Shown here in pieces: positions 33,282 to 61,964 of a stretch of DNA of 64,000 bases. The notes below the pieces were generated by a model. It was not told the origin of the DNA. It did no database searches and saw only the letters and a program-made list of their open reading frames with translations. How positions within the stretch are numbered: position 1 is the stretch's first letter; every line of letters starts with the position of its first letter. The stretch is from assembly GCA_965541585.1 (NCBI GenBank), contig CBEUCH010000015.1, positions 7,120 through 71,119 on the forward strand, read 5' to 3'. The stretch comes from an uncultured bacterium (GTDB lineage Bacteria; Zixibacteria; MSB-5A5; UBA10806). The translations under genes and the position numbers were made by a program.

Positions 33282-33367
33282 GCCGGAATGGCGGAATAGG
33301 TAGACGCAAGGGACTTAAAATCCCTCGGTCCGTATGGACTGTGCCGGTTCGATTCCGGCTTCCGGCA
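33282..33367 (+). tRNA. tRNA-Leu (anticodon TAA), class II with a long variable arm
   Basis: Hand fold. The acceptor is GCCGGAA/TTCCGGC, the anticodon loop CTTAAAA, the extra arm CGGTCCGTATGGACTG, and the T-arm GCCGGTTCGATTCCGGC. Confidence 0.8.
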
Positions 33368-33476
33368 TTATAAATCACTACGAGTGAACGGGTTGCAAAA
33401 TGTGCATCGCAACCCGTTTTTTGGTGGATTGTAGGCAAGTCCTACATGAGTCCACACTTTTTGCGGTTTTTACCAG

Positions 33477-35924: not shown

Positions 35925-35998
35925 TTTTTTCCTTTCATTTTTGTACCCGGTCGCCTCATAGTGGTGGCGACAGGAACCTGATCGCATTCAAGTGCAAA

Positions 35999-36940: not shown

Positions 36941-37480
36941 CTACTTGACTGGCTCGGCGACAGGTGTCGCTCCTTCTTCCGGACCTCCATCCTCGGCAGA
37001 GTCGTTAGCTTCCAAATCGTCAAGCATCGCTCTTCGCTCAGCCTGTACGCGTTTCAAACCCTGCGTGGCATCTTCGAGATTCTTGCGGTGGCGTTCAAGA
37101 TCGGTCTCCAATGTGCTTTTCTCCCCGCGTAAACTGTAGATCTCGTCATCGGAGGTAGCGTCTTTAAGCAAGGCTTCGATTGCTTTTAGCCTCCGCTCTT
37201 TCTTCTTAATGATGTCAGGCAATCTTTTCAGATTCGATTTGAGGATGCCGATCTGTTTGGTATCCGCCAAGGTCTTGCCGGTCTTCGAGCGTTCGCTTAC
37301 TTTGGAATTGAATGCCCTCAGAACGTTGGCATCCCACTCCTCCAGGCAGATATGTGGCGCCCCGGCATACTCGAAGAGAATACCGGCTTTCGATGCCTCC
37401 TCGGTCACTTTATCAACATCAGAATATTCCCGAAGTTCGGCCAACTGTTGAATTGTTAAAATTGTCTTTGGGGATTTCAA
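36941..37480 (-). CDS. Hypothetical coiled-coil protein (179 aa)
   Basis: The central region is charged and heptad-like (KKKERRLKAIEALLKDA...LETDLERHRKNLEDATQGLKRVQAERRAML). Confidence 0.35.
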   Translation of the reverse strand: MKSPKTILTIQQLAELREYSDVDKVTEEASKAGILFEYAGAPHICLEEWDANVLRAFNSKVSERSKTGKTLADTKQIGILKSNLKRLPDIIKKKERRLKAIEALLKDATSDDEIYSLRGEKSTLETDLERHRKNLEDATQGLKRVQAERRAMLDDLEANDSAEDGGPEEGATPVAEPVK

Positions 37481-40377: not shown

Positions 40378-40824
40378 ATGAAAGAAACCCCTGATTTGAA
40401 ATCGCTCCGTCTGGCGCAAAAGCTAACCTTGGCCGAAGTGGCACTACGCATGGACGTTTCCAAAGGTTTTGTATGCCATCTGGAGAACGGAATCAGAAGA
40501 CTAAACGATGATCTGACCAAGCGGCTGGCAGCGGCTCTGGACTGTCCGGAAAACGAGGTATGGAAAGCCAGCCAACGTTCTGGCGAAAAGAATACGATTT
40601 CCAATAGCTGGATCTCTCAGGTAAGGATCAATGGCTATCCAGTTTTCGATGCTTTCAAGTATCATCTTGAAGCGAAGAAGAAAAAACCTGATGTCAGAAA
40701 TAGGGCAAGGCTCAGAAAACAGCTCGCACAATTCATAAGTGAGAACCTGCCGTTTTCGGTGATGGCTGAACTTTCAGAGAATGACATATTGCTGGACCAG
40801 GTTGTTGAGCACTGCAAAAAGTAA
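40378..40824 (+). CDS. XRE-family HTH transcriptional regulator (repressor-like) with a C-terminal extension
   Basis: The HTH is LTLAEVALRMDVSKGFVCHLENGIRRLNDDLTKRLAAAL (Cro/C1 type). It is divergent from the minus-strand operon, as phage repressors usually are. Confidence 0.6.
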   Translation: MKETPDLKSLRLAQKLTLAEVALRMDVSKGFVCHLENGIRRLNDDLTKRLAAALDCPENEVWKASQRSGEKNTISNSWISQVRINGYPVFDAFKYHLEAKKKKPDVRNRARLRKQLAQFISENLPFSVMAELSENDILLDQVVEHCKK

Positions 40825-44794: not shown

Positions 44795-44832
44795 CCACCC
44801 CGCCCCTGCCTTTTGGTGGGGGCGTTTTTTTA
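44795..44832 (+). terminator. Rho-independent terminator
   Basis: A GC-rich hairpin (ccaccccgcccc...ggtgggggcg) is followed by TTTTTTT. Confidence 0.5.
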
Positions 44833-44932
44833 TTGCCCGGTATCAAAAACAGCTTGCATAAGACTATAGCCGAGTATAACTTGGATTATTAACATACGTT
44901 AACCCCATTTTGCGAGGGCTAAGATAGATAAT

Positions 44933-46483
44933 ATGGCGAAAAAGGATATCAAAAAGAATTCCGAAAGTTTCGAAAAAACACTATTTAAAGCAGCGGACAA
45001 ATTAAGAAAAAACATAGACGCGGCTGAGTATAAGCATATTGTACTCGGCCTTATTTTTTTGAAGTATATTTCTGACTCATTTGAGGAATTACACATAAAC
45101 CTCCTGGCAGGCAAAGGCGAATACAAAGGAGCCGATCCTGAAGATGCCGATGAATACCGTGCTGAGAATGTCTTCTGGGTTCCCAAGGTTGCTCGCTGGT
45201 CGCATCTTCACTCACGAGCCAAACAGCCAACTATCGGAAAAGATGTTGACGATGCAATGGAGGCAATCGAAAAAGAGAACAAGACCCTCAAAGGTATCCT
45301 CCCCAAAGTTTTCGCCAAACCAAATCTCGACAAGACTTCATTAGGTGGGCTGATTGACATGATCGGCAACATTGCTCTTGGTGATGAGGCTTCAAAGAGC
45401 AAAGATATACTTGGTCGAGTCTATGAGTATTTTCTTGGCGAATTTGCTTTGGCAGAAGGCAAGAAAGGCGGACAGTTCTTTACTCCCAAGTCAATCGTCC
45501 AGACTATGGTCGAAATGATCGCACCCTACAAGGGCAGGGTATTTGACCCCTGCTGTGGTTCTGGCGGAATGTTTGTAATGAGTGAGAAGTTCGTTGCCAG
45601 CCATAAAGGTAAGGTCAACGATATTTCCATATACGGTCAGGAAAGCAACCAGACTACTTATCGCTTGTGCAGAATGAACCTGGCATTGCGTGGCATCGAT
45701 GGCTCGCAGGTTAAGTGGAACAATGAAGGCTCCTTTCTAAAGGATGAACACAGGGACTTGAAGGCCGATTTCATTCTGGCTAATCCGCCATTCAATGATA
45801 GTGACTGGAGCGGTCAACTCCTGAGAAAAGACCCTCGTTGGCAGTACGGCGCACCACCCACTGGGAATGCCAACTATGCGTGGATGCAACACATGATTTA
45901 TCATTTGTCCCCAAAAGGGATTATGGGATTGGTGCTTGCCAATGGGTCGCTCTCTTCGAATACATCTGGCGAAGGGGACATCCGTAATAGTATTATAGGT
46001 GCTGACTTGGTGGATTGCATTGTCGCTCTGCCAAAGAATCTTTTCTATAACGTCACTATTCCTGCGTGCCTTTGGTTTCTTTCCCGTAAACGGACAGGCA
46101 ATGGTAATAGGAAACGCTCGGGCGAGATTCTTTTCATAGATGCTACCGAAGTAGGCCACATGATTGATCGCACTCATCGGGTGTTTACCGATGAGGATGT
46201 GTTGAGACTTGCCAACACCTACCATGAGTGGAGAAAAGAGAATGGCAACTATGAAGATATCAAGGGCTTTTGCAAATCTGCCGCACTCAAGAACGTAGAA
46301 AAGCACAAATTCGTCCTCACACCAGGGCGTTATGTCGGCATTCCCGACGAAGAAGATGACGGTATTCCTTTTGATGAAAAGATGAAATCGCTTACTGGTG
46401 AATTGGCCCAACAAATGTCAGACGAAAAGCGGCTCGATAGTGAGATACAGAAGCAGCTAAAGAATGTCGGGTATAACATTTAG
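44933..46483 (+). CDS. hsdM: Type I restriction-modification system DNA methyltransferase subunit
   Basis: It has the HsdM N-domain ([15 protein letters not shown]), AdoMet motif I ([13 protein letters not shown]) and motif IV (NPPF, in [12 protein letters not shown]). Confidence 0.85.
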
Positions 46484-46503
46484 CCGAGAACTAACTTGAG
46501 GTT

Positions 46504-47367
46504 ATGGCAAAATTAGGCATTTCAGAGTTTTCATTCAGCTTTTCTTTTCTGCATGAGCAGGTAAATAGAAATGGTAGACCATTCTGTGTTCCTGTATTAC
46601 CCTCTCTGCGTAGAGAATCTGATGTAGGGTATGATGCTAAGCTTCCTAAAAAGGGGATTGACTACTATTTCCAATTCAAAATGAGTGATTACTTGCGAGG
46701 TGGAAATGCCAAATTTATTAAGGATGGCACATATAGAAGTCTTTACTATCGAATTGCTCTGCATAAGGCCAAGAAGAACAAACAGCACAATCTTCTCTAT
46801 ATGCTTTCTCAAAAGAACCCATATGTTTACTACGTTGCACCTAAGCTAAGAACAGATCAGTCATTTTATGATGCTTGTGTAAGAAGGTTAGTTACGGTGA
46901 GTTCAATGATGATTCCAGTGGATTCCTGTGGTTATGTCAGCGATTCGCTTCAACACTTTGTGACATATCCAGAATTTGGCTATGAGTGGCATTTCCATTC
47001 AAAGCCCAAGCGATTTGATAATGCAATTGAAGGGGAGCGGATAGTTTCGCACTTCGCAGAAAGTTCTAAGAACTGGGTGGCTATCAACAAGGAATTCGCT
47101 TTGAATGTTTATGAACGAATAAAGCAATCAACATATGTATATCAGAGTGGTGATTTTGAAGGGATAGAAGATAATACGAGGAAAGCTATAGGCGATGACA
47201 AAAGATTAGGTATCGTAGGCGTAGAAACCAAAAAGCCAACTTTCAATGTTGAAGAGTTCTTTGATCGGAATATAAAAAAGTCAGATACTTTTACGATATT
47301 GCAGAGAGCATCCGCTATTGCGATGATGTTATATGGTTCAGCACTGATGATAGTCGGTGAAAACTAA
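46504..47367 (+). CDS. Hypothetical protein inserted between hsdM and hsdS
   Basis: It is a 287-aa open frame within the R-M operon, with 20-bp gaps either side. No motif is recognised. Confidence 0.4.
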   Translation: MAKLGISEFSFSFSFLHEQVNRNGRPFCVPVLPSLRRESDVGYDAKLPKKGIDYYFQFKMSDYLRGGNAKFIKDGTYRSLYYRIALHKAKKNKQHNLLYMLSQKNPYVYYVAPKLRTDQSFYDACVRRLVTVSSMMIPVDSCGYVSDSLQHFVTYPEFGYEWHFHSKPKRFDNAIEGERIVSHFAESSKNWVAINKEFALNVYERIKQSTYVYQSGDFEGIEDNTRKAIGDDKRLGIVGVETKKPTFNVEEFFDRNIKKSDTFTILQRASAIAMMLYGSALMIVGEN

Positions 47368-47372
47368 CAATT

Positions 47373-48542
47373 ATGAACAAGACTGATTCAAAGCAAATAC
47401 CTGATGGATGGAAAGAAACAACATTGGGAGCACTTGTTACCTTTCAACGTGGTCATGATTTGCCGAGATCTAAAATGGTTGATGGTTCTTTTCCAATCAT
47501 GGGGTCAAATGGTATTATTGGATTTCATAACCAAAGTACAACAAAAGCTCCAGGCGTGACAATCGGTAGAAGTGGTAATATTGGAAGAGCCTTTTTAGTG
47601 AAAAGAGATTATTGGGCGCATAACACAACATTATATTCCAAACAGTTTCATGATTCGGATCCTGTTTTTGTATATTATTTAGTGAAAAACCTAAAATTTG
47701 AAAGATTCAATTCGGGTAGTGCTGTTCCAAGTTTAAATAGAAACTTCATTCATCCGATTCAGCTAAATGCTCCAATTATCTTTGAACAAAAAGCCATTGC
47801 CAGGGTTTTATCCTCTCTCGATGACAAGATTGAGTTGCTACGCAAGCAGAATGAAACCCTTGAAGCGATAGCACAGACAATCTTCAAAGAGTGGTTTGTG
47901 AACTTCAACTTCCCTGACAAAAATGGAAAGCCGTTCAAGGACGGCGGCGGCAAGATGATCGACTCCGAGCTGGGCGAGATTCCTGACGGGTGGAGAGTGG
48001 GTAAACTCGGCGACGAGTTTGGCATACTAATGGGGCAATCGCCACCTGGAACAAGCTACAATGAAGAAAGCGAAGGGGTTGTATTTTTTCAGGGCAGAAC
48101 TGATTTTCAAGAACGATTTCCAAAAGTTAGGCTCTATACAACAGAACCCAAGAGAATCGCTGAAGCATTTGATGTATTGGTAAGCGTAAGAGCACCAGTC
48201 GGTGATGTTAATGTTGCCATTGAAACCTGCTGCATTGGTCGAGGTCTAAGCTCTGTAAGAGGACAGCAACAATCCTACACATTGTACAAAATGAAGTTTT
48301 TGGGAGACGTATTGCGACGATTCGATGCAGAAGGGACAGTTTTTGGGTCAATTAGCAAAGATGATTTCAAGAGTATTGAAGTCCTGACACCGATGGAAGA
48401 ATGGATAAACTCATTTGAGAACACAGTCAATCCATTGGATCAGAAAATACTCTCAAATTATAAGCAAATACAAACATTAACTCGACTACGAGACATTCTG
48501 CTGCCCAAGTTGATGAGTGGGCAGGTGAGGGTGAGGATGTAG
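47373..48542 (+). CDS. hsdS: Type I R-M specificity subunit with two target-recognition domains
   Basis: The central conserved coiled region ELLRKQNETLEAIAQTIFKEWFVNFNFPD and the repeated TRD architecture are present. It is 389 aa. Confidence 0.8.
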   Translation: MNKTDSKQIPDGWKETTLGALVTFQRGHDLPRSKMVDGSFPIMGSNGIIGFHNQSTTKAPGVTIGRSGNIGRAFLVKRDYWAHNTTLYSKQFHDSDPVFVYYLVKNLKFERFNSGSAVPSLNRNFIHPIQLNAPIIFEQKAIARVLSSLDDKIELLRKQNETLEAIAQTIFKEWFVNFNFPDKNGKPFKDGGGKMIDSELGEIPDGWRVGKLGDEFGILMGQSPPGTSYNEESEGVVFFQGRTDFQERFPKVRLYTTEPKRIAEAFDVLVSVRAPVGDVNVAIETCCIGRGLSSVRGQQQSYTLYKMKFLGDVLRRFDAEGTVFGSISKDDFKSIEVLTPMEEWINSFENTVNPLDQKILSNYKQIQTLTRLRDILLPKLMSGQVRVRM

Positions 48543-48557
48543 AAGGAGGGAATCAAA

Positions 48558-48923
48558 ATGGAAAGGTATATTCTAACAACCTATGATAAGAACAGATTAA
48601 GCTCCTATCCTATGATAATTTCAATACACGGTAAATCGTGGTGTTGTAAGCAGGCTCGAATCCTTGTTCAAAGTATGGATGGTGGTTTCATAACTGCTAA
48701 CTGTATGAAATGTAATAATAAAACGAATGTATTGATTGACGAATTTCAATCTTTTGATAGAGACGTAAACTGTCCCAAATGTGGTATGGTTATGTCTCCT
48801 GCTTATGTCCCTGATGGAAGTAAAATTGAAGAACGTAACTATGGTTTTAAGTGCATGAAATGTGATATTTATATATGGGCATCTGATTTAATTCCATATT
48901 ATGAAGATTTTCCATATAGATAA
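48558..48923 (+). CDS. Small zinc-ribbon protein (four CxxC pairs) inserted between hsdS and hsdR
   Basis: CC-KQ, CMKCNNK, CPKCGM and CMKCD motifs are present. AGGAGGG lies 6 nt before ATG 48558. Confidence 0.4.
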   Translation: MERYILTTYDKNRLSSYPMIISIHGKSWCCKQARILVQSMDGGFITANCMKCNNKTNVLIDEFQSFDRDVNCPKCGMVMSPAYVPDGSKIEERNYGFKCMKCDIYIWASDLIPYYEDFPYR

Positions 48924-48931
48924 TAAGAAAC

Positions 48932-51900
48932 ATGACAAGAGACAAAATCACAGAAGATGCAGTCGAACAGGTAGCCATAGAGCTACTCGAAGAGCAGGGA
49001 TACCACTACCTCACTCCCGAACAGTGGGAGGCTGAACGAGGGGACCTATCCAATGTTCTCTTGAGGGATCGTCTGAAAACTGCCATTGATAAACTTAACC
49101 CGATAATTCCGCAGGAAGCGAAAGAACAAGCCTTACGAGTAGTGTCGAATCTTCCCAGTCAGAATTTGGTGGAGAACAACGAGACGTTTCATCGGATGTT
49201 GACCGATGGAATTGACGTTGAATATATGGGAGATGATGGCATTAAAGGTGATAAGGTCTGGCTTATTGATTTCAAAGAACTCACCGAAAATGACCTGGTC
49301 GTTTGTAATCAGTTTACGGTTATCCAGGACAGCCTCAACAAACGCCCAGACGTGGTGCTGTTTGTTAATGGATTGCCACTTGTTGTGATAGAGTTGAAAA
49401 ATCCAGCTGATGAAAACGCTACTGTTAAGAAAGCATATACCCAGCTCCAGAATTACAAGAACGCAATCCCCAATCTGTTTTATTATAATGGAATTTTAAT
49501 AGCTTCTGATGGCCTGGACGCAAAGGTTGGATCATTGACTGCAGGTTGGTCTCGGTTCATGGTCTGGAAAACGAGCGATGGAGCCAAGGAAGATAAGGTC
49601 ACTATTCCTCAAATGGAAACCGTCATCAGAGGTATGCTGAGACCCGATGTACTGTTTGACCTTATAAAGCAGTTCACTGTCTTTGAAAAAACCAAAAAAG
49701 AGGACACCAAGACCAGATTCACAACAATAGAAACAGCTAAGAAGATAGCGGCATATCACCAGTATTATGCCGTCAAGAAAGCAGTTGAATCTACCAAGCG
49801 GGCCGCCAGTGATAATGGAAGTAGAAAAGGTGGCGTTGTCTGGCATACGCAAGGCAGCGGTAAATCTCTTTCCATGGTGTTCTATTCAGGACAGACAGTA
49901 TTAGAACTTGATAACCCAACGATTGTAGTAATTACCGATAGAAATGATCTTGATGATCAGCTATTTGATACTTTCGCGGGTTGTAAACAGCTATTAAGAC
50001 AAGAGCCAGTACAGGCGGAGAATCGGGAACACCTAAAAAAACTACTCAAGGTTGCTGGCGGCGGTATCGTATTCACGACAATTCAGAAGTTCTCGCCTGA
50101 AGACGGCGGAGATGTATTTGATCTATTATCTGACAGAAAAAACATCGTTGTAATAGCCGACGAAGCCCATAGGAGCCAGTACGGATTCGGCGCCAAGACT
50201 ATCGTGCGAAATAATGAAGCATATACCAGTTATGGCTTCGCTAAGTATCTCAGGGATGCCCTTCCAAAAGCGACCTTCATTGGATTTACAGGCACACCTA
50301 TTGAAAAAGAAGACAGATCAACGCGAGCAGTCTTTGGCAATGAAATTGATATCTATGATATTTCTCAGGCTGTCAAAGACGGAGCAACTGTTCGTATTTA
50401 CTATGAATCCCGATTAGCTAAAGTCCACCTGAAACCCGAGGAGAAAGATAAGCTCGACGCTGAAGTTGAAAGAATAACTGAAGGTGAAGAATCGACTGCG
50501 AAGGAAAAGGCAAAAGCCAAATGGACTCAACTCGAAGCAATAGTTGGGCATCGGGATAGGCTAAAATCTGTCGCCAAAGATATTATCGATCATTTTGAGA
50601 GGCGGGAGGAAGTATTTGACGGTAAGGCCCTAATTGTGACTACGAGCCGTCGCATAGCTGTTGAGTTATACGAAAAAATAATGGCCTTACGTCCACATTG
50701 GCATGGCGACGATAAGAGAAAAGGCGAGATCAAGGTAATAATGACCTCCAGTTCCAGCGATCCTCAAAGCTGGCAAAAGCATAATACAACAAAGCAGGAC
50801 AGAAAAGACATTGGGGAAAGGTTCAAAGACCCGAATGATAGGCTGAAATTCGTTATAGTTAGGGATATGTGGCTTACAGGCTTTGATGCCCCTTGTCTCC
50901 ACACCATGTACGTTGATAAGCTGATGCGAGGACATAACCTAATGCAGGCCATAGCGCGCGTGAATAGGGTTTTCAAAGATAAACCTGGCGGCCTCATTGT
51001 TGACTATATCGGAATTGGATACGATCTCAAAAAAGCGATGGCAACCTATTCTGAAAGCGGTGGGGAGGGTGAACCAACTTTGGATATTGATGAAGCTATC
51101 GCGACAATGCTGGAGAAGTACGAAATCGTTGCTCAAATGTTTGATGGTTTTGATTATAAGCGATATTTTACAGCCAATACTAAAGACAAGATGACAATCA
51201 TCTTGGAAGCCCAGGAGCATATTCTCGGTCTGGACGACGGCAAGAACAGATTTGTAAGACAGGTGATTCTGCTTTCAAAAGCCTTTGCCCTATCCGTGCC
51301 AAATGAAGAGGCAATGGCGATTAAGGATGATATTGGCTTCTTTCAAACGGTAAAGGCTCGTCTCACGAAATTCACTCCAACAGGAGGCGGTAAGTCTGAC
51401 GAGGAGATAGAAACAGCAATACGGCAGATTGTCGATAAAGCCATAGTTTCAGAAGGAGTAGTCGATATATTTGCTGCTGCTGGTATCAAGAAGCCTGATA
51501 TTTCGATATTGTCGGATGAATTTATGGCTGAAATTAAAGGTATGAAACGAAAGAACCTAGCTTTTGAATTATTAAAGAAAATCTTGTCCGACGAAATCAG
51601 GCTCAGATTGACCAGAAACCTAATTCATGGCAAAAAGCTATCTGAACTGTTGGAAAACGCTATTAAGAAATACCAGAATAACCTCCTGACCGCGTTTCAA
51701 GTTATTGAAGAATTGATTGAACTGGCTAAACACATCAAGTCCGAAGATGAGCGCGGCAAAGAGATGAATTTGTCCGCAGATGAAATTGCATTCTACGATG
51801 CTTTGGCAGATAACGATAGCGCAAAAGAAGTTCTCGGCGATGACACACTACGAGAGCTTGCTAGAATATTGGTCGAGAAAGTTCGCGCTAATACGTCAAT

Positions 51901-52054
51901 TGACTGGACAATTAAGGAGAGTGTTCAGGCCAAATTGCGGACAATAATCAAGAGAACGCTACGCAAGTTCGGCTACCCGCCTGATAAGCAGTTGTTGGCA
52001 ACCGAGAATATTCTTAAACAAGCGGAGTTGTTTGCAAATGAATGGGCTGCGTAG
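48932..52054 (+). CDS. hsdR: Type I restriction enzyme R subunit (SF2 helicase-nuclease)
   Basis: The HsdR N-terminal nuclease region, Walker A HTQGSGKSLSMV, DEAH box VVIADEAHRSQ and motif VI region are present. It is 1040 aa. Confidence 0.85.
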   Translation: MTRDKITEDAVEQVAIELLEEQGYHYLTPEQWEAERGDLSNVLLRDRLKTAIDKLNPIIPQEAKEQALRVVSNLPSQNLVENNETFHRMLTDGIDVEYMGDDGIKGDKVWLIDFKELTENDLVVCNQFTVIQDSLNKRPDVVLFVNGLPLVVIELKNPADENATVKKAYTQLQNYKNAIPNLFYYNGILIASDGLDAKVGSLTAGWSRFMVWKTSDGAKEDKVTIPQMETVIRGMLRPDVLFDLIKQFTVFEKTKKEDTKTRFTTIETAKKIAAYHQYYAVKKAVESTKRAASDNGSRKGGVVWHTQGSGKSLSMVFYSGQTVLELDNPTIVVITDRNDLDDQLFDTFAGCKQLLRQEPVQAENREHLKKLLKVAGGGIVFTTIQKFSPEDGGDVFDLLSDRKNIVVIADEAHRSQYGFGAKTIVRNNEAYTSYGFAKYLRDALPKATFIGFTGTPIEKEDRSTRAVFGNEIDIYDISQAVKDGATVRIYYESRLAKVHLKPEEKDKLDAEVERITEGEESTAKEKAKAKWTQLEAIVGHRDRLKSVAKDIIDHFERREEVFDGKALIVTTSRRIAVELYEKIMALRPHWHGDDKRKGEIKVIMTSSSSDPQSWQKHNTTKQDRKDIGERFKDPNDRLKFVIVRDMWLTGFDAPCLHTMYVDKLMRGHNLMQAIARVNRVFKDKPGGLIVDYIGIGYDLKKAMATYSESGGEGEPTLDIDEAIATMLEKYEIVAQMFDGFDYKRYFTANTKDKMTIILEAQEHILGLDDGKNRFVRQVILLSKAFALSVPNEEAMAIKDDIGFFQTVKARLTKFTPTGGGKSDEEIETAIRQIVDKAIVSEGVVDIFAAAGIKKPDISILSDEFMAEIKGMKRKNLAFELLKKILSDEIRLRLTRNLIHGKKLSELLENAIKKYQNNLLTAFQVIEELIELAKHIKSEDERGKEMNLSADEIAFYDALADNDSAKEVLGDDTLRELARILVEKVRANTSIDWTIKESVQAKLRTIIKRTLRKFGYPPDKQLLATENILKQAELFANEWAA

Positions 52055-52154
52055 ATGTCAGGAATTTATTTATGAATATTTTGAACCAAACATAACTTGA
52101 AGTCCACGAGCAGAAGATAAAAACAAAATAGGCGAGGTTTGGGGGGAATGACAT

Positions 52155-54647
52155 ATGATAAATAAAATAATTAAATTGAACAATCTTGGTCTCTTCAAAG
52201 GATCAACATGGGCAGATAGTGATCTCCAGTTTGGGAAGGTCAATCTCCTTTACGGATTTACTGGGAGCGGGAAAACAATGCTTTCCAATGTTCTAAGGAT
52301 GTTCAGCAAAGACTTACCCAGTGATGAACAATGTGCGATCCTGGACCAACTGCGCAATAAGGAGAGTGTGGATGTTGAGATTGAGCTACTATGGGATAGT
52401 AAAAAGGTAAGATCCTTCTCTGAAAGAAAGAGCATTTTCGTGTTCAACTCACATTTTGTGAATGAACATGTCTATGACGGCTCAAGCTCAAAGCTAAAAC
52501 ACTTTAAGGCAAGTGTTGTTACAACAGAGCATCTCAAGAATCCAGAAATAAAAAAATCGGAGGACTCTATATCAGTTAAGCAACAACAGTATGAGCAGAA
52601 TCAGAAGCAGATCACGCAGTTGTCCGAGCTGGCGCGTACAACAAGGGCTAATCTCTCAAACCTGTGGAACGCGTCTATTTCTGGTCCCAGACTACCGCAA
52701 AATCTAAATCTCAACAATCCCGAGATCATCCCTCATGGGGCCTCAGAAATTACGCTTGATGAACTTGAGAACCAATTGGCGGATCATTATCGAAAGTTCA
52801 AGGTCACAAAAAGTAATTATGATCTGCAAAAGGATGAAAAAACACTGGAAGAAAGGACCTTTGAAAAACTCACCATCCCATTAGCAATAGAGTCACAACT
52901 ACAAAAGGATATTTCGCAGGAGGCCTACAAGAAAATAAAGGGGAGGCTGGACACTCTCAAAGAGTCAGAACTCAAGCATTCAAGCGTTCAGGAATGGTTT
53001 GAAGACGGTGTTGTGCTCCTGACTGACTCAAAGGATAGGCAGAAATGCCCTCTTTGTGATAGCGACATTCCCAATATAAGAGAGATCATCGAGGACTATA
53101 ACAGTTTCTTCAATGAGGAATTTGTAGGACTTCAAAAGGCCCTCGCTGCGGAAGTGCAGCAATTGAACACAATCTTAGAAACGGCAAGGAATGATAAGGA
53201 CCGATTTGATATTCTTAGCAAGATTATTCATAAATATCAGTTTATAGAGAAACTCACAAAGGACCAGAAATCCTTGCTACAGGAATATTCCATTATCGAG
53301 CTTGAAGACGTTGTAAATTCTGCCAAGAACCTTGTTGTTAAGAAACAAAAACAACTGGAAACGCTGTTCTTCGATAAGGACTTAGCCCCGATCCGTGATG
53401 CACTAGAAGAAATCAGAGCATACAACAAGACCATTGATAAGATTGAAACTCTTAGGAAAAAAGCACTGGTTGAGTTGAAGAGGAGTAGCTTCAATCTCAA
53501 TACGGCAAAAGAGACCGCAAAAGATTGTTTCTGGAAGAAATTCGATACCCTCGGGCATGTCTATGCAAAGAAATACGCGAGGAGCAACGAAGGTAAGAAA
53601 ACAGATCAGATGGGAGGAATCGAATTCTACAAATACCTGATTGAAATAAATGAGTGCTTAAGCAGGGAAATAGGGCAATGTAGGAAAGACAAGCTAGTTT
53701 TATTATCAAAACTGAAGAAAGAATCAGAGTTTGTGAATTCATTTCTCCAGCAGTTGTGTATTGCAAACTTCAAGATCAGAGTCGGCGATAAGGAAGAAGA
53801 CGATATAGAGGTTATATACGGTGACGGTGTAACCAAGAAAGGAATAAAGTATTCGTTAAGTGAGGGGGAGAAAACTGCTCTCGCTTTCGCGTATTTTCTC
53901 AGTAAGGTCAAGTATGAAATTTTAGATAACACACAGAGTAGACTGAAAGACCATGTAATGGTCATTGACGACCCAGTATCAAGTCTTGACGAAAACAGGC
54001 TATTCTCAACAGCATTACTCATAAAAGCAATGTTTGCTAGAGATTCAAAGCAATTATTCGTATTCAGCCATAATCTTGTGTTTTTGAAATTTATGGGCAG
54101 CGTTCTCGGGAAAGTGGATAATGAGGAGCGAAAGGATTTCTATCTGGAGAATGGGAAGATTGAGGGATTGCCAAAAACATTGCAGAACTTTCAAACATCG
54201 TACTTTTACAAGCTTGGAAGATTACAGGCCTATCTTGATGGGGAAGTGGATTACGAATCCGCGAAGGACGTGATTCCGAATTGTGCGCGAATAGTCTTGG
54301 AGTCATTTCTTTCTTTCAAATTGTGCCGTCTGAAGCAGGGTAGCGGTGCGAGTAACAGGTATAAGTCCGCTGGATTGGACAGGTTGATACCGGCAATAGA
54401 TGGCGTTAGCCTAACTGGTTTTACGCCGGTTGGCAATATCAATGACAAAAAAAGTCTGGTTCAAACGCTGTGCGAGATTAAGAACAGGGTGGATCCTGAA
54501 AGTCATGGAACGCCACAGGATATCACTGAGTTTGAGTTCCTGCCTGAATCTGAACTAAAGAAAGTCACCCATAATACTCTCGATGTAATTGCATTCTTAG
54601 ATCAGATCCATATTCGGGAGGTAAGCCGACTGGGCACACAAGGTTAG
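52155..54647 (+). CDS. RloC/PrrC-like ABC-type ATPase (AAA_13-like) with a long coiled-coil insert carrying a CxxC zinc hook. It is a putative anticodon-nuclease-type abortive infection protein.
   Basis: It has Walker A GFTGSGKTM, an ABC signature LSEGEKTALAF, Walker B/D-loop VMVIDDPVSSLDENR and an H-loop FSHN. Between Walker A and the signature lies about 500 aa of heptad-rich sequence with QKCPLCDSD at its midpoint. The C-terminal 170 aa includes ARIVLESF (an R-x3-E pair as in the PrrC ACNase motif). Confidence 0.5.
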   Translation: MINKIIKLNNLGLFKGSTWADSDLQFGKVNLLYGFTGSGKTMLSNVLRMFSKDLPSDEQCAILDQLRNKESVDVEIELLWDSKKVRSFSERKSIFVFNSHFVNEHVYDGSSSKLKHFKASVVTTEHLKNPEIKKSEDSISVKQQQYEQNQKQITQLSELARTTRANLSNLWNASISGPRLPQNLNLNNPEIIPHGASEITLDELENQLADHYRKFKVTKSNYDLQKDEKTLEERTFEKLTIPLAIESQLQKDISQEAYKKIKGRLDTLKESELKHSSVQEWFEDGVVLLTDSKDRQKCPLCDSDIPNIREIIEDYNSFFNEEFVGLQKALAAEVQQLNTILETARNDKDRFDILSKIIHKYQFIEKLTKDQKSLLQEYSIIELEDVVNSAKNLVVKKQKQLETLFFDKDLAPIRDALEEIRAYNKTIDKIETLRKKALVELKRSSFNLNTAKETAKDCFWKKFDTLGHVYAKKYARSNEGKKTDQMGGIEFYKYLIEINECLSREIGQCRKDKLVLLSKLKKESEFVNSFLQQLCIANFKIRVGDKEEDDIEVIYGDGVTKKGIKYSLSEGEKTALAFAYFLSKVKYEILDNTQSRLKDHVMVIDDPVSSLDENRLFSTALLIKAMFARDSKQLFVFSHNLVFLKFMGSVLGKVDNEERKDFYLENGKIEGLPKTLQNFQTSYFYKLGRLQAYLDGEVDYESAKDVIPNCARIVLESFLSFKLCRLKQGSGASNRYKSAGLDRLIPAIDGVSLTGFTPVGNINDKKSLVQTLCEIKNRVDPESHGTPQDITEFEFLPESELKKVTHNTLDVIAFLDQIHIREVSRLGTQG

Positions 54648-54817
54648 GTGTTGAATTGGATGAACCTCATCACAGTTTTGTGGATATTATAGCGCAGTTG
54701 TTTTGCTCGGAAGATATCTGGCTTTGAAAAAGGTTCGAACATCCTTATCCGAATCGATCATTATGGTATAACTCGCCCCGTTTAATAGCCGACGATGGTG
54801 CCATCAGTAACTTCAGG

Positions 54818-54843
54818 CCGCCTCCATTTGATGGTATAAGAAT
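54818..54843 (+). promoter_or_regulatory. Promoter-like direct repeat copy 1 (GCCGCCTC-N-TTGATGGTATAAGAA; extended -10 TGgTATAAG)
   Basis: It lies about 170 bp upstream of the GIY-YIG gene. A near-identical element is found at 57037..57063. Confidence 0.35.
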
Positions 54844-55014
54844 GAAGCTTGCTTCACACGAGGTCTGCTATTTTTGGATGCAATAAGATACGATCTGGAT
54901 CGATCAATCTGGGCCGTATAACCGCAATAAAATCCTTGCCGTATGGGCCATGTTTCTCCTAGAATTTCCACAATAAAGGCGTTTGAGCATTTGAGAATAG
55001 ACTAGGAAACCAAA

Positions 55015-55743
55015 GTGACAGTCAAAAAAAAGAAGACTCGGCGGAGCAGGCAATTAGTTCTAGGCCATTTAGAACGGATTTCGAGTAAAGTATTTTCTGA
55101 CTTCCCAAAGCAACTTACAGATTTAGTGAGCAAACAACACGGTGTTTACGCCCTTTATAAGGGCAACCGTCTCTATTATGTTGGGCTTGCCAGCAATTTG
55201 AGAAATAGAATCAGACATCATTTGCGAGACAGACATGCAGGGAAGTGGGACAAATTCAGCCTTTATCTGGTAAGAAAAGCTGATCATATAAAAGAGCTTG
55301 AATCATTGATCTTGCGAATTGCGGATCCAACAGGAAATGCAATAAGGGGGGGATTGGCCCGAGCCGAGAATTTGAGATTTGAACTTCAGGCAAAAATAAA
55401 AGCAGCCCAGGAGAAACAACTATTTAGCCTACTTGGCGCCAAGAAGAGGATAAAACTAAAGCAGAGAAGGTCTCGACCGCAAAGAAAGGTCAAGATGGCT
55501 TCTAAACCTGCTTTAGCTCCCTACGTCAAAAGGCGTTTTAAGATTCGTGCCAGAGATCGTGGAAAATTGTTCGAAGCGAGAGTTAGGAGCAATGGCACAA
55601 TCAATTTCAACGGGAATCTTTTTAATTCACCGTCTGGCGCTGGAAAGGCCGCAACCGGTCGTTTAAAAAATGGATGGTGGTTCTGGCATTTCAAGAATAA
55701 GAAAGGTGAATGGGTGCGTCTGAGGGAGTTGAGGCGTAAGTAG
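55015..55743 (+). CDS. GIY-YIG nuclease-domain protein with a basic C-terminal region
   Basis: The N-terminal GVYALYKGNRLYYVGLASNLRNRIRHH is a GIY-(10)-YVG...R...N signature. The C-terminal NGWWFWHF...GEWVRLRELRRK resembles the small domain often fused to GIY-YIG in R-M-associated proteins. Confidence 0.5.
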   Translation: MTVKKKKTRRSRQLVLGHLERISSKVFSDFPKQLTDLVSKQHGVYALYKGNRLYYVGLASNLRNRIRHHLRDRHAGKWDKFSLYLVRKADHIKELESLILRIADPTGNAIRGGLARAENLRFELQAKIKAAQEKQLFSLLGAKKRIKLKQRRSRPQRKVKMASKPALAPYVKRRFKIRARDRGKLFEARVRSNGTINFNGNLFNSPSGAGKAATGRLKNGWWFWHFKNKKGEWVRLRELRRK

Positions 55744-55765
55744 GTAATACAGAAGGAGGTTTGTA

Positions 55766-55879
55766 ATGGCAGCTAAAAGAAGAGTCCGTTGCTCGGGCAA
55801 GACATCAGCAGGCAAAAGGTGTAAACGCAAGGTGGCGCTTCCTGCGAAACGCTGCCATCTTCACAAGAGACAAAGATAA
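55766..55879 (+). CDS. Small basic Cys-rich ORF (37 aa), likely co-transcribed with the GIY-YIG gene
   Basis: AAGGAGG lies 6 nt upstream of ATG. The product is MAAKRRVRCSGKTSAGKRCKRKVALPAKRCHLHKRQR (C-x9-C-x10-C-H-x-H). Confidence 0.3.
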   Translation: MAAKRRVRCSGKTSAGKRCKRKVALPAKRCHLHKRQR

Positions 55880-56076
55880 TGACCTGTCTTAGGCGGTTGG
55901 ATTCATTCCAGCCGCCTTTTTAAATGATTATGGCATATTACCTTGACAGTATAGTTGTCTAAATATTATGGTTTAGAAATGGCTGAATTCTGCGGAGAAT
56001 GCTGGGAAAAGATGGGAGCACCTCCAAAGGTCAACAGAATTTGACGCTTTTATAAGTGTTTGGAGAGTGAGGCATG

Positions 56077-58049: not shown

Positions 58050-61000
58050 ATGGAAAATGAAAAATATGATAAAGGCGAAAGCGCAATGAAGGCCTGGTTT
58101 GATTCCTTCCGAATAAGAGACTGGATTGACATGGCAGAGCTAACCGAGAGGATTTCAGTATTTTCCGAAAAGGAATCACAATTTCTCCACAAAATGGCGG
58201 AATTGGCTGAGCAAGGTCCCCCTCCCACTGTTAAGCAAATTGGATTTGCTCAGAGTATTGTCGATAAGATTGGACTATCAAGAGGCGACCGTCCGATATC
58301 TGGCGAAATAAAGGTGGAGAAGATACTGGACAATAAAACCGCAGACAAAACTATGCACCTGACAGTACGCCTTGCTTGGCACTCTGACGGATGGAATGGA
58401 AACATATGTACCGCACCCGATAAGAATGATTACTGCGTAGGAGAACATTCGCTGTTATCAAAGAGGGTGAGGGAAAACAGAAACCTAGCAACTGAGTCAG
58501 AGCTCGCTGGGTGCAAATGTGACGAAGGCCACAATAAAGACTATCAGGCTCCATGTTACTGGTCCATCAATGCGTTGGGTGACTCTCCTATTCATTGTCA
58601 GCACGAACACGCAATTGAGAGAGGAGCACCTAAAATCGGAGAAGATCTTCCTCCCTATTCGGTTTTCACATGGCCTTTCAAACTATTTTTTTCCAGAAGC
58701 AAAGAGGAAAAGGAAAAAAACGGTAAATACCCTCCTATGCAGGAAGACAAGGCAATGCGCTTCTTCGGTAAATTTTCAGAAGGAAATTCTATAGTATTCC
58801 TTTATTGTAATTACGACAATCCGATTTCGGGTGACGACCAAAAATATCTGTTAGTCGGCTGTGGGTTGCTTAAAGGGAAAGGCAAATTAAGCCATTTTAA
58901 TATATCACGCGAGCGAATGAGTTGGTGGCAAGCTAAAAAAGAATTTAAAAACTTCTCCAATCTGAATTGGAGTTATAGAATCTCAATGGATCTGCCTAAG
59001 ATGGGCGTAATTATCCCGTATCACAATTATCTCAGACACGCCGTAGAAAATGATAATTACGCTTATCTCAACGAAATAAAGATAATAATTGATGAACCGG
59101 AGCTTATACCCGGCTTCAAATATGTGGCTATGGATATTGATGACGATCAGGCGATATACCTGCTTACTAAGATAAGAAAAAGCCTTTATAAGATGAAGGA
59201 ACAAGCTTTCTTAACAAAAACTGAATTTAATCTGGATGATGCAATAAGAAAGGCAGAATACTTGCTGGGTCTATGTTGGAACAAGAGAGGTTATCTTCCT
59301 GGTCTGGGGAAACTCGCACGGATATTTCTGGATCGCAGCAAGGCCGAGCCACTTAGATTAGACGAGTTATTTTCAACTATGACAGGCAGTGCAGATGCAG
59401 TTGAAGAGCTTATAAGTCTGCTAAATGATCCAGAAAACCTCCCCGATGAAATGGATGATTATTATGACGAGTTATCTGACTTGCACGATACGATAAGGTC
59501 TAAAGGTTTATCAACAGAGGAATTCATTCGGCTCTCAGCGTTAGACCTTACTGATCATCAATTTAGACGAATTGTACAAGGTAGGATCTCCGATAATGGT
59601 GTTGGGCTCAAGGATATATGCAATAATCCCTATGTCCTTTGCGAGGAATATCAGATAAGTGATTATGATCATATAGAGGACCCAATAACGGGTGACCAGA
59701 TCGATGGGTTGATACACGTATTTAAAATAGATATCGCATATTATCCTGATGTAAGATTTCAAAAGAAGCTAAAGTTGCTTCACAGGATGACGAGTGATGA
59801 TCCTCGAAGGATAAGAGCGCTAGCGATATCTTATCTTAGGGGAGTAGAGGAAAGCGGTGATTGTTTTGAAAGTGGAGTCGAACTGGGAAAGAGGCTCATG
59901 GAATATCCTTTGTTTTACAAATCTATTTATCTATTGCGAGAAGATATCTTAACTCATCCCGACAGGCCTCTGGAGAGCCATTTAGCAGAGAAGATAGTAA
60001 TAGAAAGAGATACTGAAAATCAAAGGATATTTTATTATTTAAAAGAAATCTATGAAGCTGAAAGATCCGTTGAAGATGCCATTAACTTTCTTCTCAGGCA
60101 GCCAGATATTGAAATCGCTCCACAATTGGGCGTCGGTGAATCGGCAACGTATCTTAAAAATAAACTGGGAGAAAGATTCAGGGAAGGACAATTTCTATTG
60201 GAACGCAGTAAGCTCTATGAGAAGATTCTAAAGAAAAGGGTTTTTGTTCTTTCTGGAGGACCAGGAACTGGTAAGTCGTTTGAACTTTTAAAGTTAATAG
60301 ATGTACTCAAGCAGGACGGGCAAAATTATCTGCTGCTTTGTCCCACAGGCAAGGCCACGTTACGACTTAAGAATAATGATGAGGGATTTGGAAATATCAT
60401 TGCTCGGACAATTGACAAATTCTTTGCCGAAAGAAAAAAGGAAAAGAATAGCAGATATGTCGTCGAAAACCTAATAATTGATGAATTTTCCATGGTAGAC
60501 TTGAAAAAAATGAGGGATTTGCTTGATATAGTAAGAGTGAAATCCCAGGATTTCAAGAGACTTATATTAGTTGGTGACGAGCATCAGCTTCCACCAATCG
60601 GGTATGGAAGAGTCCTTTATGATATAGTTAATTATTTGAAGAGAGATGCCCGCTATGAGGCTAATAATTATATTCGTCTGGAAACCAATTGCCGCCAAGA
60701 GTATGATGAAAACATAGTAAAGTTTGCTAGAATATTCTCCAGACAAGAAAGAAATCCGGAGCATTTACTGACGAAGATGGCTAAAGGCGGGAACGTATCA
60801 AAAGGATTATTAATACAATATTGGAACTCTCGAGAACAGCTATATGAGTTAATAACCTCGACATTTGCAAATATATTCGGAGACCAAAATACCGGCATCG
60901 ATCTTGATCTTTTGATAAACACAGTGTTTGGCTTAGAACAGGACGGAACCATCGATGAGAGTGACTCCCGATTCAATGAAAGTCTTAAAGTTGATAGGTT

Positions 61001-61964
61001 CCAAATAATATCTCCATACAGAACCGGGTTCTTCGGGGCGCTGGGTTTGAACAACTATGTTCAAGAGAAATTCAAAGGTAAGCAGAGTTTCATTCCTCGC
61101 CTTTCTTTGAAGCACGGGGATAAAATAATGCAGATTGAGAATATGTATAGTAATGATGGTAGAGAACTACTAATATCAAATGGCTCCCTCGGTGTTGTCC
61201 AGCAAAGAGGACAGTATGGAAAGTCGTTTTACTTTCTGGAAAGATCCAAACCTTTCACCCGCCTCAAAGAGGAGTCATTTGAGTTGGCCTATGCCATCAC
61301 GGTGCATAAGTCCCAGGGCAGTGGCTTTGACCATGTATTCTTCATTGTACCTTCAAAAAGCACGCTGCTGTCAAGAGAGCTAGTTTACACTGCTATGACC
61401 AGGTCTAAATTAGGCATTTCTATTTTTGTACACGATGCAGGGAAGATTGAAAGTAGGGCTAATAAATTCCACGAGATCATCAACAAATCAAGCGTAGAAT
61501 TACGTAAAACAAGCCTAATGGGAAAATATTACTGGGAATTTTCTTTGAATCCTGCTCCCGATGTGTATGTGAGATCTAGAGCAGAATATATCATTTATAA
61601 AAGCCTTTTAGAATTCAAAAAACAGGAAAGCAGTTTCTCGTTCGCCTACGAGAATCCTCTTGAGATTGATGAAGAATTATCTATAAAACCAGATTTCATA
61701 CTGATTACCCCGAAGGGCGAATTCTATTGGGAACACCTAGGCCGCCTTGGTGACATACACTACGAAGGATCTTGGCAAAGTAGGCGAAAGTTATATGAAA
61801 GAAAGGGTCTAATTGACAATTTGATTACCACCGACGAGCTTCTTGGCATACACGATAGCAAGATCAAAAAGATAATATTTCAAATTTGTCGTGGAAAGCT
61901 ATCTTCAGATAGAGAAGATGAAAAGTACTCATTACACCATTATCAGCTATCAGATTATTCTTAA
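58050..61964 (+). CDS. Large multidomain protein: an N-terminal 650-aa Cys/His-rich unknown region, a RecD/TraA-like SF1 helicase core, and a C-terminal Vsr/DUF559-like (PD-(D/E)xK) nuclease fold
   Basis: The helicase motifs are VFVLSGGPGTGKS (I), LLCPTGKATLRL (Ia), LIIDEFSMVD (II), LILVGDEHQLPPIG (III) and AITVHKSQGSGFD (V/VI). The C-terminal SRAEYIIYKSLLEF...KPDFILITPKGEFYWEHLG resembles a DUF559/Vsr-type endonuclease. Confidence 0.6.
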   Translation: MENEKYDKGESAMKAWFDSFRIRDWIDMAELTERISVFSEKESQFLHKMAELAEQGPPPTVKQIGFAQSIVDKIGLSRGDRPISGEIKVEKILDNKTADKTMHLTVRLAWHSDGWNGNICTAPDKNDYCVGEHSLLSKRVRENRNLATESELAGCKCDEGHNKDYQAPCYWSINALGDSPIHCQHEHAIERGAPKIGEDLPPYSVFTWPFKLFFSRSKEEKEKNGKYPPMQEDKAMRFFGKFSEGNSIVFLYCNYDNPISGDDQKYLLVGCGLLKGKGKLSHFNISRERMSWWQAKKEFKNFSNLNWSYRISMDLPKMGVIIPYHNYLRHAVENDNYAYLNEIKIIIDEPELIPGFKYVAMDIDDDQAIYLLTKIRKSLYKMKEQAFLTKTEFNLDDAIRKAEYLLGLCWNKRGYLPGLGKLARIFLDRSKAEPLRLDELFSTMTGSADAVEELISLLNDPENLPDEMDDYYDELSDLHDTIRSKGLSTEEFIRLSALDLTDHQFRRIVQGRISDNGVGLKDICNNPYVLCEEYQISDYDHIEDPITGDQIDGLIHVFKIDIAYYPDVRFQKKLKLLHRMTSDDPRRIRALAISYLRGVEESGDCFESGVELGKRLMEYPLFYKSIYLLREDILTHPDRPLESHLAEKIVIERDTENQRIFYYLKEIYEAERSVEDAINFLLRQPDIEIAPQLGVGESATYLKNKLGERFREGQFLLERSKLYEKILKKRVFVLSGGPGTGKSFELLKLIDVLKQDGQNYLLLCPTGKATLRLKNNDEGFGNIIARTIDKFFAERKKEKNSRYVVENLIIDEFSMVDLKKMRDLLDIVRVKSQDFKRLILVGDEHQLPPIGYGRVLYDIVNYLKRDARYEANNYIRLETNCRQEYDENIVKFARIFSRQERNPEHLLTKMAKGGNVSKGLLIQYWNSREQLYELITSTFANIFGDQNTGIDLDLLINTVFGLEQDGTIDESDSRFNESLKVDRFQIISPYRTGFFGALGLNNYVQEKFKGKQSFIPRLSLKHGDKIMQIENMYSNDGRELLISNGSLGVVQQRGQYGKSFYFLERSKPFTRLKEESFELAYAITVHKSQGSGFDHVFFIVPSKSTLLSRELVYTAMTRSKLGISIFVHDAGKIESRANKFHEIINKSSVELRKTSLMGKYYWEFSLNPAPDVYVRSRAEYIIYKSLLEFKKQESSFSFAYENPLEIDEELSIKPDFILITPKGEFYWEHLGRLGDIHYEGSWQSRRKLYERKGLIDNLITTDELLGIHDSKIKKIIFQICRGKLSSDREDEKYSLHHYQLSDYS

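Follow-up and report, generated by a model that had tools for sequence, protein, structure and literature searches.

This study identified, in the window (the whole stretch of 64,000 nucleotides that was analysed), a gene whose 830-aa product is probably a divergent anticodon nuclease (ACNase) of the RloC family acting in abortive-infection phage defence, an activity predicted from the sequence. RloC was defined by Davidov and Kaufmann in 2008 by three features: ABC ATPase motifs, an insert of coiled coil bearing a CX2C zinc hook and, at the C-terminus, the triad Arg-X3-Glu...(Ser)His (PMC2610378). All three are present and conserved in the 830-aa protein, the triad with a wider Glu-to-His spacing than published, in line with the earlier note on this DNA, which called the protein RloC-like. 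The locus is an example of an already known type of phage defence and not a new one: what it contributes is a divergent subgroup within that family, and our understanding of the working of these systems stays as it was. The positions of all features are collected in Table 1.

Table 1. Positions of the features discussed, numbered from the first letter of the window.
Feature	Position	Strand	Basis or remark
Type I R-M genes hsdM, orf287, hsdS, orf121, hsdR	44933..52054	+	Pfam; upstream of the 830-aa gene
hsdM	44933-46483	+	Pfam N6_Mtase/HsdM_N
hsdS	47373-48542	+	Pfam Methylase_S
hsdR	48932-52054	+	Pfam HSDR_N/SWI2_SNF2/T1RH-like_C
RloC-family ABC ATPase gene with zinc hook and HEPN domain (probable)	52155..54647	+	ORF, 830 aa, ATG start
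Walker A / P-loop GFTGSGKT, aa 34-41	52254..52277	+	Motif scan; next residue Met, not Arg
Ascending helical arm of insert, aa about 130-291	52542..53027	+	AlphaFold2 secondary structure, heptad score
Zinc-hook motif CPLC (predicted), aa 298-301	53046..53057	+	Motif scan, conservation
Descending helical arm of insert, aa about 308-533	53076..53753	+	AlphaFold2, heptad score, Foldseek
ABC signature LSEGEK, aa 568-573	53856..53873	+	Motif scan
Walker B and D-loop VIDDPVSSLD, aa 603-612	53961..53990	+	Motif scan
H-loop FSHN, aa 637-640	54063..54074	+	H639 conserved
C-terminal HEPN-fold domain, aa 672-830 (predicted anticodon-nuclease module)	54168..54644	+	
R712-x3-E716 (RIVLE), triad residues 1-2	54288..54302	+	Alignment
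R778-x5-S783-H784 (RVDPESH), HEPN-type Rx4-6H motif including the triad His	54486..54506	+	
Terminator-like hairpin	55891..55917	+	Consensus scan only

Family assignment and the hook-bearing ATPase

The N-terminus of the protein (MINK...) coincides with that of its homologues, supporting the start of the reading frame. With reference to family models, the protein matched Pfam AAA_13 over residues 22-730 (E 1.6e-54) and PADLOC PDC-S06 (E 3.6e-48), apparently the set of RloC-like models in PADLOC, with a PDC-S06 score of 163 bits compared with 800-950 bits for typical RloC-like proteins. No match to a PADLOC model by the name of RloC was obtained for the 830-aa protein or for 10 typical relatives. 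An identical protein is present in NCBI, Logan and ENA sources without a name; cluster look-ups returned no informative name, the NCBIfam search no meaningful family, and a plasmid search only partial and distant matches to 'AAA family ATPase' proteins, with no named reference among them. Neither the protein nor a 10-sequence profile gave anything significant in searches of PDB sequences, Rad50 and SMC included, and no RloC or PrrC relative was met there. Residues 121-480 of Geobacillus kaustophilus RloC (GkaRloC), rebuilt as a query from a machine reading of Supplementary Figure 1, found no match either; this reading is of poor quality, the same text recurring from row to row, and short matches of hook fragments were accordingly given little weight.

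We observed that the ABC ATPase motifs common to RloC and PrrC are all present in the protein, and that Walker A, LSEGEK, DDP…SSLD and the H-loop stand where the earlier note implied, far beyond chance. Among the 10 closest homologues, G34, G37, G39 and K40 of Walker A as well as S569 and E572 of the signature are invariant, while in an alignment of 82 relatives D605, D606, S609, Q633 and H639 were found in every sequence and D612 in 72. The residue that follows Walker A is not the Arg that is present in PrrC and absent from RloC (PMC3458546).

Between these two halves of the head lies the helical insert. It had been described as about 500 aa of heptad-rich sequence, a figure that fits the distance from Walker A to the signature (526 aa) but not the helical insert itself, which covers about 400 aa (130-533). 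Its heptad-rich character was borne out only moderately by a crude heptad score, in which windows of 28 residues were compared with the 95th percentile of shuffles: that level was exceeded by 12-19% of the windows in the two arms and by 7% of those in the head's C-terminal half, but by 0% in the N-terminal head or in the C-terminal domain. The AlphaFold model likewise places long helices in the insert (130-172, 308-360, 407-443, 448-476 and 488-533). In this model the CPLC motif occupies the loop that joins helices 278-291 and 308-360; all 10 of the closest homologues keep C298, P299 and C301, and in 59 of 59 relatives a CxxC falls 0.48-0.53 of the way from Walker A to the signature, so that the central location ascribed to the motif stands. 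CPLC is thus the predicted zinc hook at the midpoint of a Rad50-like insert. A Foldseek search with the full model matched the heads of SMC, Rad50 and SbcC (5xei, 7.6e-6; 7zr1_C, 2.5e-5 over 828 columns), and the descending arm matched coiled-coil-bearing heads of SMC and Rad50, in keeping with the SbcC/Rad50-like architecture proposed before.

Genomic setting and the link to restriction

The type I restriction-modification (R-M) operon that had been reported beside the gene was confirmed by Pfam, which identified hsdM, hsdS and hsdR directly upstream. From 44824 to 55891 there are no strong terminator-like sites (8 or more G-C pairs) but only weak ones, all within coding sequence; the hairpin listed in Table 1 may end a putative transcription unit running from hsdM to a GIY-YIG gene, and, judging by gene order, the 830-aa gene is probably co-transcribed with hsdMSR. 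The setting is an integrative (mobile) defence island, and hsdMSR loci also house about 10 of 80 relatives. The tRNA-Leu 3' end does not recur (as attR) anywhere in the window, and no sigma-54 promoter was detected near an RtcR-like gene.

By analogy with GkaRloC, the protein would dimerise through its ATPase heads, with the zinc hooks keeping the RNase silent until DNA-end binding and ATP hydrolysis release it. The HEPN RNase would then cut tRNA anticodon loops in a metal-free reaction, possibly excising the wobble nucleotide, and translation in the infected cell would be halted. A wobble-excising ACNase gated by a zinc hook and a DNA-dependent ATPase is known for GkaRloC alone (PMC2610378, PMC3458546). 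Gene order further suggests that this nuclease would step in as a second defence once restriction has failed or been alleviated, and a role as suicidal backup to hsdMSR is plausible on the same ground.

The same neighbourhood raises an arrangement closer to PrrC, in which the RNase would be silenced by association with the adjacent HsdMSR and freed by a phage anti-restriction protein hitting the complex, the zinc-hook and DNA-end switch playing a lesser part. prrC is always R-M linked and its product is silenced by EcoprrI (PMC3458546), and here hsdR ends only 100 bp upstream on the same strand with no predicted terminator between. Both of the closest homologues (55% and 50% identity) lie directly behind R-M genes, and, the 830-aa gene in the window included, all three members of the closest clade do so; in the locus of homologue P0002 an ArdC-N anti-restriction gene comes next. 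However, the R-M genes preceding the clade members belong to different families, P0002 following an hsdR only 26% identical and P0003 an HsdM-like methyltransferase gene, and with partners so unrelated a specific protein-protein interface is less likely. Where identity falls to 41% or less, homologues stand alone without R-M linkage, so the family can do without functional coupling to hsd. The protein also keeps the full zinc-hook insert, which gives GkaRloC its autonomous switch (PMC3458546), and lacks the PrrC-marking Arg. The RloC literature stresses this internal switch and not silencing by Hsd (PMC3458546), and we consider PrrC-style control of the present protein unlikely, though worth keeping in view.

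The RloC reading, if correct, would make the locus a natural case of a suicidal tRNase of this type genetically tied to type I restriction, a linkage that Davidov and Kaufmann met in only 8 of their 72 RloC specimens (PMC2610378). One could then use it to examine whether the state of a restriction enzyme influences RloC, for instance through restriction alleviation, anti-restriction proteins or HsdR-made DNA ends.

The C-terminal domain and its RNA target

The C-terminal domain displays the all-alpha fold together with the Rx4-6H motif by which HEPN domains are recognised. In RloC, the C-terminal triad reads Arg-X3-Glu-X36-52-His, often with Ser before the His, and GkaRloC, whose catalytic residues are R692, E696 and H737, lost both ACNase activity and toxicity when the triad was mutated (PMC2610378). 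The ARIVLE stretch at aa 711-716, likened to this Arg-x3-Glu pair in the earlier note, bore the comparison well: R712 is present in 81 of the 82 relatives, and the position of E716 is E in 72 and D in 9 of them, with N709 kept in 77. H784 is invariant (82/82) and is preceded by S783 in 76; a basic residue stands at -7 of the triad His in 64 of the 82, whereas the 830-aa protein has its R at -6. When the C-domain was aligned by hhalign with those of typical RloC-like proteins (98.5%, E 3e-15), the triad columns and the PNxxRxxLE, SH and DxxH motifs were in register, the R712/E716 pair falling on the PNxxR[RK]xLE of typical members, and the catalytic residues are conserved in these alignments. 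A 10-sequence alignment had placed L753 at X37, as though the canonical His were lost; this reading was ruled out by the 82-sequence alignment and hhalign, which put H784 on the invariant Ser-His and explain the long spacing by insertions. The active-site loop (783-792) is a low-confidence part of the AlphaFold model.

The Glu-to-His spacing amounts to 67 residues, compared with the published 36-52. Helicobacter pylori proteins classed as RloC orthologues show X72-74 in the same alignment, so the published range is apparently too tight to serve as a criterion, and the 830-aa protein need not be an outlier. An 819-aa protein of H. pylori encoded beside fmt, which its genomic context equates with entries 46-48 of Table S1 (PMC2610378), belongs to the same long-linker subgroup, which carries 20-30 extra residues, including a predicted beta-hairpin, between the RxxxE helix and the Ser-His, and comprises about 112 clusters at 50% identity. 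A C-domain profile searched against 1.84 billion proteins recovered only 112 clusters, none of them obviously PrrC-sized and complete, and the same C-domain was found in all full-length relatives. The C-domains alone, of this protein and of typical relatives, found no match to the PADLOC PrrC model by HMMER, and the link to PrrC therefore stays at the level of motif and fold, as in PMC2610378.

The insertions of the long-linker subgroup bear on a reading in which the protein, though an ABC-ATPase/HEPN defence RNase, would be no anticodon nuclease, its HEPN domain having been retargeted to mRNA, rRNA or other RNA. LsoA, RnlA and Csm6, HEPN RNases that cut mRNA or other RNAs, are among the fold matches of the C-domain and agree with such a shift. 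Against it, the catalytic and flanking motifs remain in register with typical RloC-like proteins, PMC2610378 includes H. pylori proteins of this subgroup among the RloC orthologues, and GkaRloC is itself promiscuous among tRNAs (PMC3458546); we therefore regard a target other than tRNA as improbable. A bolder and quite speculative proposal, which we would favour little, is that the long-linker clade, with its extra HEPN insert and with its closest members repeatedly placed right behind unrelated R-M genes, forms a functionally distinct branch of RloC, in which the Rad50-like head would sense the DNA ends or stalled translocation of the neighbouring restriction enzyme and so link restriction events directly to the RNase, the substrate of the RNase might not be the tRNA wobble position, and PrrC-type external control would be combined with RloC-type internal control.

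That the protein is a DNA repair ATPase of the SMC, RecN or SbcC type without any nuclease role is hardly credible: it does have a head and coiled coil of SMC-, Rad50- and SbcC-like structure, and Pfam SMC_N matches it weakly (E 3.2e-7, under the gathering score), but it bears a conserved HEPN domain with an invariant His that Rad50, SbcC and T4 gp46 lack (PMC2610378), the PDB sequence searches point to no Rad50 or SMC relative, no SbcD- or Mre11-like gene is adjacent, and its homologues are AAA_13/PDC-S06 proteins with the same C-terminal domain.

Comparison with known systems

Lamassu LmuB, PtuA of Septu and retrons, and ABC-HEPN proteins of the APECO1_4465 type are, like the predicted nuclease, SMC-like sensor ATPases coupled to a toxic effector, and they occur among the fold matches; in those systems, however, the effector mostly resides in another protein or in a domain of a different kind. 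PADLOC LmuB, AriA and AbiL are matched weakly by relatives of the 830-aa protein, not by the protein itself. With Rad50, SbcC and SMC proteins, its best structural matches, it shares the split ABC head, the antiparallel coiled-coil arm and the apical CxxC zinc hook, but it has much shorter arms and an added HEPN RNase domain, with neither significant sequence similarity nor an Mre11/SbcD partner. PrrC likewise joins an ABC-type NTPase to a C-terminal HEPN-class RNase with an Arg-x3-Glu...His triad. Its gene, too, is linked to hsdMSR, and PrrC backs up restriction by abortive infection, the role suggested for the present protein. PrrC differs in its size (341-416 aa), in having no coiled-coil/zinc-hook insert and in its Arg after Walker A; a feature called the PrrC Box has also been described for it. 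The PADLOC PrrC model covers only the ATPase half of the 830-aa protein (residues 519-691, profile 100-258 of 372).

Comparatively, the closest likeness is to RloC: a length of 830 aa against 658-897 aa (PMC2610378), the ABC motifs, the helical insert with its central CX2C, the Arg-x3-Glu...Ser-His residues and the missing Arg after Walker A. The differences from RloC are the longer Glu-to-His distance with its extra HEPN segments, and the position of the gene directly after hsdR where most RloC genes are not R-M linked. Embedding among type I R-M genes occurs occasionally in RloC and is the source of its name, and the long-linker C-domain is common to this protein and to H. pylori members of the RloC cohort.

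Architecture of the RloC-type protein

The RloC-type gene is an intact open reading frame with an ATG start, and all the motifs that an earlier note, made from the sequence alone, had named in its product were found (see the table). An unnamed protein identical to it exists in public data, a word-based search retrieved just nine other relatives with 25-55% identity, and no significant sequence similarity to solved structures was observed. Pfam AAA_13 (PF13166) matched residues 22-730 with an E-value of 1.6e-54, and SMC_N gave a sub-threshold score.

Features of the window (nucleotide positions) and of the RloC-type protein (residues, marked aa)
Feature	Position	Strand	Remarks
tRNA-Leu(taa)	33281-33368
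Tyrosine integrase	33477-34550	-
Four ORFs downstream of the RtcR-like gene	36941-37480, 35999-36868, 35433-35987, 34875-35339	-
CARF and sigma-54-activator (RtcR-like) protein	37860-39758	-	631 aa; Cas_NE0113 CARF, sigma-54 interaction domain, AAA lid
HTH protein	40378-40824
D5-type primase-helicase	41242-43767
hsdM, orf287, hsdS, orf121, hsdR			in that order, after the primase-helicase and before the RloC-type gene
Terminator-like hairpins	44801-44824, 55891-55917
orf287	46504-47367	+	287 aa
orf121	48558-48923	+	121 aa
RloC-type gene	52155-54647	+	830 aa
GIY-YIG/RAMA protein	55015-55743	+	242 aa; PADLOC candidate PDC-S14 E 1.1e-15; N-terminal GIY-YIG motif, C-terminal RAMA
RecD/SF1B-helicase-like protein	58050-61964	+	1304 aa; PADLOC candidate PDC-S68 end-to-end, 1400 bits
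Walker A GFTGSGKT	aa 34-41
Zinc-hook motif CPLC	aa 298-301
ABC signature LSEGEK	aa 568-573
Walker B and D-loop VIDDPVSSLD	aa 603-612
H-loop FSHN	aa 637-640
ARIVLE	aa 711-716
ESHG	aa 782-785
N709	aa 709		77/82 proteins
R712	aa 712		81/82 proteins; the exception is a deletion
E716	aa 716		72 Glu and 9 Asp among 82 proteins
S783	aa 783		76/82 proteins
H784	aa 784		82/82 proteins
H819	aa 819		75/82 proteins

The AlphaFold2 model, built from a 10-sequence alignment (mean pLDDT 73), displays a beta-rich head of residues 1-129 and 536-671; residues 130-533 form a helical insert that splits this head and includes several helices 40-50 residues long, and the CPLC loop lies between helices 278-291 and 308-360. 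In a Foldseek comparison with the PDB, the top matches were SMC, Rad50 and SbcC heads (5xei, 7.6e-6; 7zr1_C, 2.5e-5 over 828 columns; 7yzp_C), followed by retron/Septu PtuA and Lamassu LmuB. C298, P299 and C301 do not vary among the closest homologues, and in all 59 more distant relatives in which both landmarks could be located a CxxC was noticed 0.48-0.53 of the way from Walker A to the signature, which is the apex position expected for a Rad50-type zinc hook. The proposed SbcC/Rad50-like split ABC head with a central CPLC is thus borne out. The insert had also been called heptad-rich, which a crude heptad score supports moderately: in its two arms, 12-19% of windows scored higher than the 95th percentile of shuffles; in the N-terminal head and in the C-terminal domain the share was 0%, and in the head's C-terminal half 7%.

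The C-terminal domain and family membership

In GkaRloC, the RloC of Geobacillus kaustophilus, activity and toxicity need each of R692, E696 and H737 (PMC2610378). With 80 relatives gathered from species-representative genomes, we aligned 82 proteins over everything from Walker B onwards to the C-terminus; R712, E716 (Asp in 9 proteins) and H784 are retained almost throughout, in agreement with the suggestion that ARIVLE holds a putative Arg-x3-Glu catalytic pair. Replacement of the canonical His by Leu753, as read from the 10-sequence alignment, was rejected by this alignment and by profile-profile comparison. Glu and His are spaced by 34-47 residues in most relatives and by 54-74 in a long-linker subgroup, to which the RloC-type protein (67) belongs together with its close homologues, the proteins of loci L001-L012 and L057, and those of H. 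pylori loci L024 and L043 (72 and 74). When 80 long-linker and 58 typical C-domains were compared by hhalign (probability 98.5%, E 3e-15), PNxxRxxLE, Ser-His and DxxH fell in register, and two insertions account for the extra length. The fold of the domain matched AbiA (8.7), HEPN toxins (7.6-7.8), LsoA (6.2) and Csm6 (6.0), and at lower values HepS (5.8), Las1 (5.7) and RnlA (5.1), in line with the literature, where the nuclease domains of both PrrC and RloC are placed in the HEPN superfamily (PMC3710099). The HEPN Rx4-6H motif corresponds to R778-x5-H784, and Arg or Lys occupies position -7 in 64 of the 82 relatives.

With the PADLOC model PDC-S06, apparently RloC-like, typical relatives score 800-950 bits and the RloC-type protein 163 bits. 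In several full-length typical relatives the match to the PrrC model extends into its nuclease part, as far as profile positions 341-351 of 372; the match of the RloC-type protein ends at position 258, covering the ATPase only, and isolated C-domains, whether from this protein or from typical relatives, gave no match to this PADLOC model. A profile search of 1.84 billion representatives with the long-linker C-domain yielded only 112 clusters, whose complete proteins are nearly all 790-870 aa long with this domain C-terminal. A GkaRloC query (residues 121-480) rebuilt from the machine-read text of Supplementary Figure 1 (supplementary file 1 of PMC2610378), a text unreliable as sequence owing to fragments repeated across rows, returned no protein at E <= 1e-10. 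At L024, the 819-aa H. pylori protein is followed by methionyl-tRNA formyltransferase, the same flank as Table S1 of PMC2610378 gives for RloC orthologues 46-48 of H. pylori, so that long-linker proteins were already counted as RloC by the original authors; this supports their membership of the RloC cohort. The observation of an RloC-like protein is confirmed and its interpretation supported, as a rather divergent addition to the known family.

The island and its restriction-modification genes

Near 28 kb of the window, GC content drops from about 0.49 to about 0.40, and the stretch 33281-64000 looks like an integrative defence island at tRNA-Leu(taa). No second att copy or tRNA-Leu 3' end was found within the window, so the island would span at least 30 kb and extend past the window end. 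The two hairpins flank the stretch from hsdM to the GIY-YIG gene. Between them, strong terminator-like sites, with at least 8 G-C pairs, were not detected, and the weaker ones all lie within coding sequence; co-transcription of hsdM through GIY-YIG is plausible. The GIY-YIG/RAMA gene, 367 bp past the RloC-type gene and ahead of the second hairpin, may belong to its transcription unit.

The hsd operon harbors two extra restriction-linked ORFs: orf287, in the hsdM-hsdS gap, matched nothing in Pfam, NCBIfam, PADLOC or PHROGs, and orf121, in the hsdS-hsdR gap, has weak zinc-ribbon-like matches (PADLOC PDC-M14A, E 9e-6; S27e and Sir2 zinc modules sub-threshold). The RecD-like gene is a further single-gene defence candidate. 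The CARF, sigma-54 interaction and AAA lid domains form what we take to be the RtcR architecture; RtcB and RtcA genes and a TGGCAC-N5-TTGC promoter were not found nearby, and the four downstream ORFs contain no Pfam family and one weak PHROG match of unknown function. The island pairs a regulator of RNA-damage-sensing type with a predicted tRNA nuclease, and this regulator beside unknown genes on an RNase-toxin island may merit a separate look.

As the earlier note had stated, the gene adjoins a type I operon, with hsdM, hsdS and hsdR directly upstream. All three hsd genes are present in about 10 of the 80 loci, usually with the RloC-type gene between hsdS and hsdR; at L009 and L011 it follows hsdR, as in the window. 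Among close homologues, P0002 (55% identity) lies immediately after an hsdR just 26% identical to that of the window, and downstream of it (locus L081) lie an ArdC-N anti-restriction gene (7112-7897) and ssb, suggesting carriage on a conjugative element; ArdC linkage was reported for two RloC orthologues (PMC2610378). P0003 (50%) starts 1 nt past an HsdM-like methyltransferase whose C-terminus carries a long extension, and a PD-(D/E)xK protein comes next downstream of P0003. P0004-P0007 (41% or less) show no R-M linkage, and toxin-antitoxin and defence genes surround P0004 and P0005.

Mechanism and relation to known systems

Sequence and structure prediction show the domain architecture, the conserved catalytic residues, the position of the hook and the order of the genes. 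By analogy with GkaRloC (PMC2610378, PMC3458546), the ATPase heads would dimerise, the zinc hook would silence the RNase, and DNA ends with ATP hydrolysis would activate it for a metal-independent cut in tRNA anticodon loops; the wobble nucleotide may be excised, and the damage would arrest translation and abort the infection. A PrrC-like silencing of the RNase by the Hsd complex is the main alternative. The closest clade is R-M-linked in 3/3 cases with an unrelated partner each time, a pattern more readily reconciled with defence-island clustering or a modular link in function than with a dedicated interface between the proteins. Second comes a modified HEPN domain aimed at a different RNA target. 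An SMC/RecN repair ATPase, for all the likeness of the head to SMC structures, is effectively excluded.

The RloC reading is the one we retain. Arg after Walker A is a mark of PrrC, the anticodon nuclease of the E. coli prr locus (PMC3458546), whereas the RloC-type protein has Met there. Linkage to R-M is not new for RloC, being already in the family name, and the locus offers a natural system in which to ask whether RloC listens to the neighbouring restriction enzyme.
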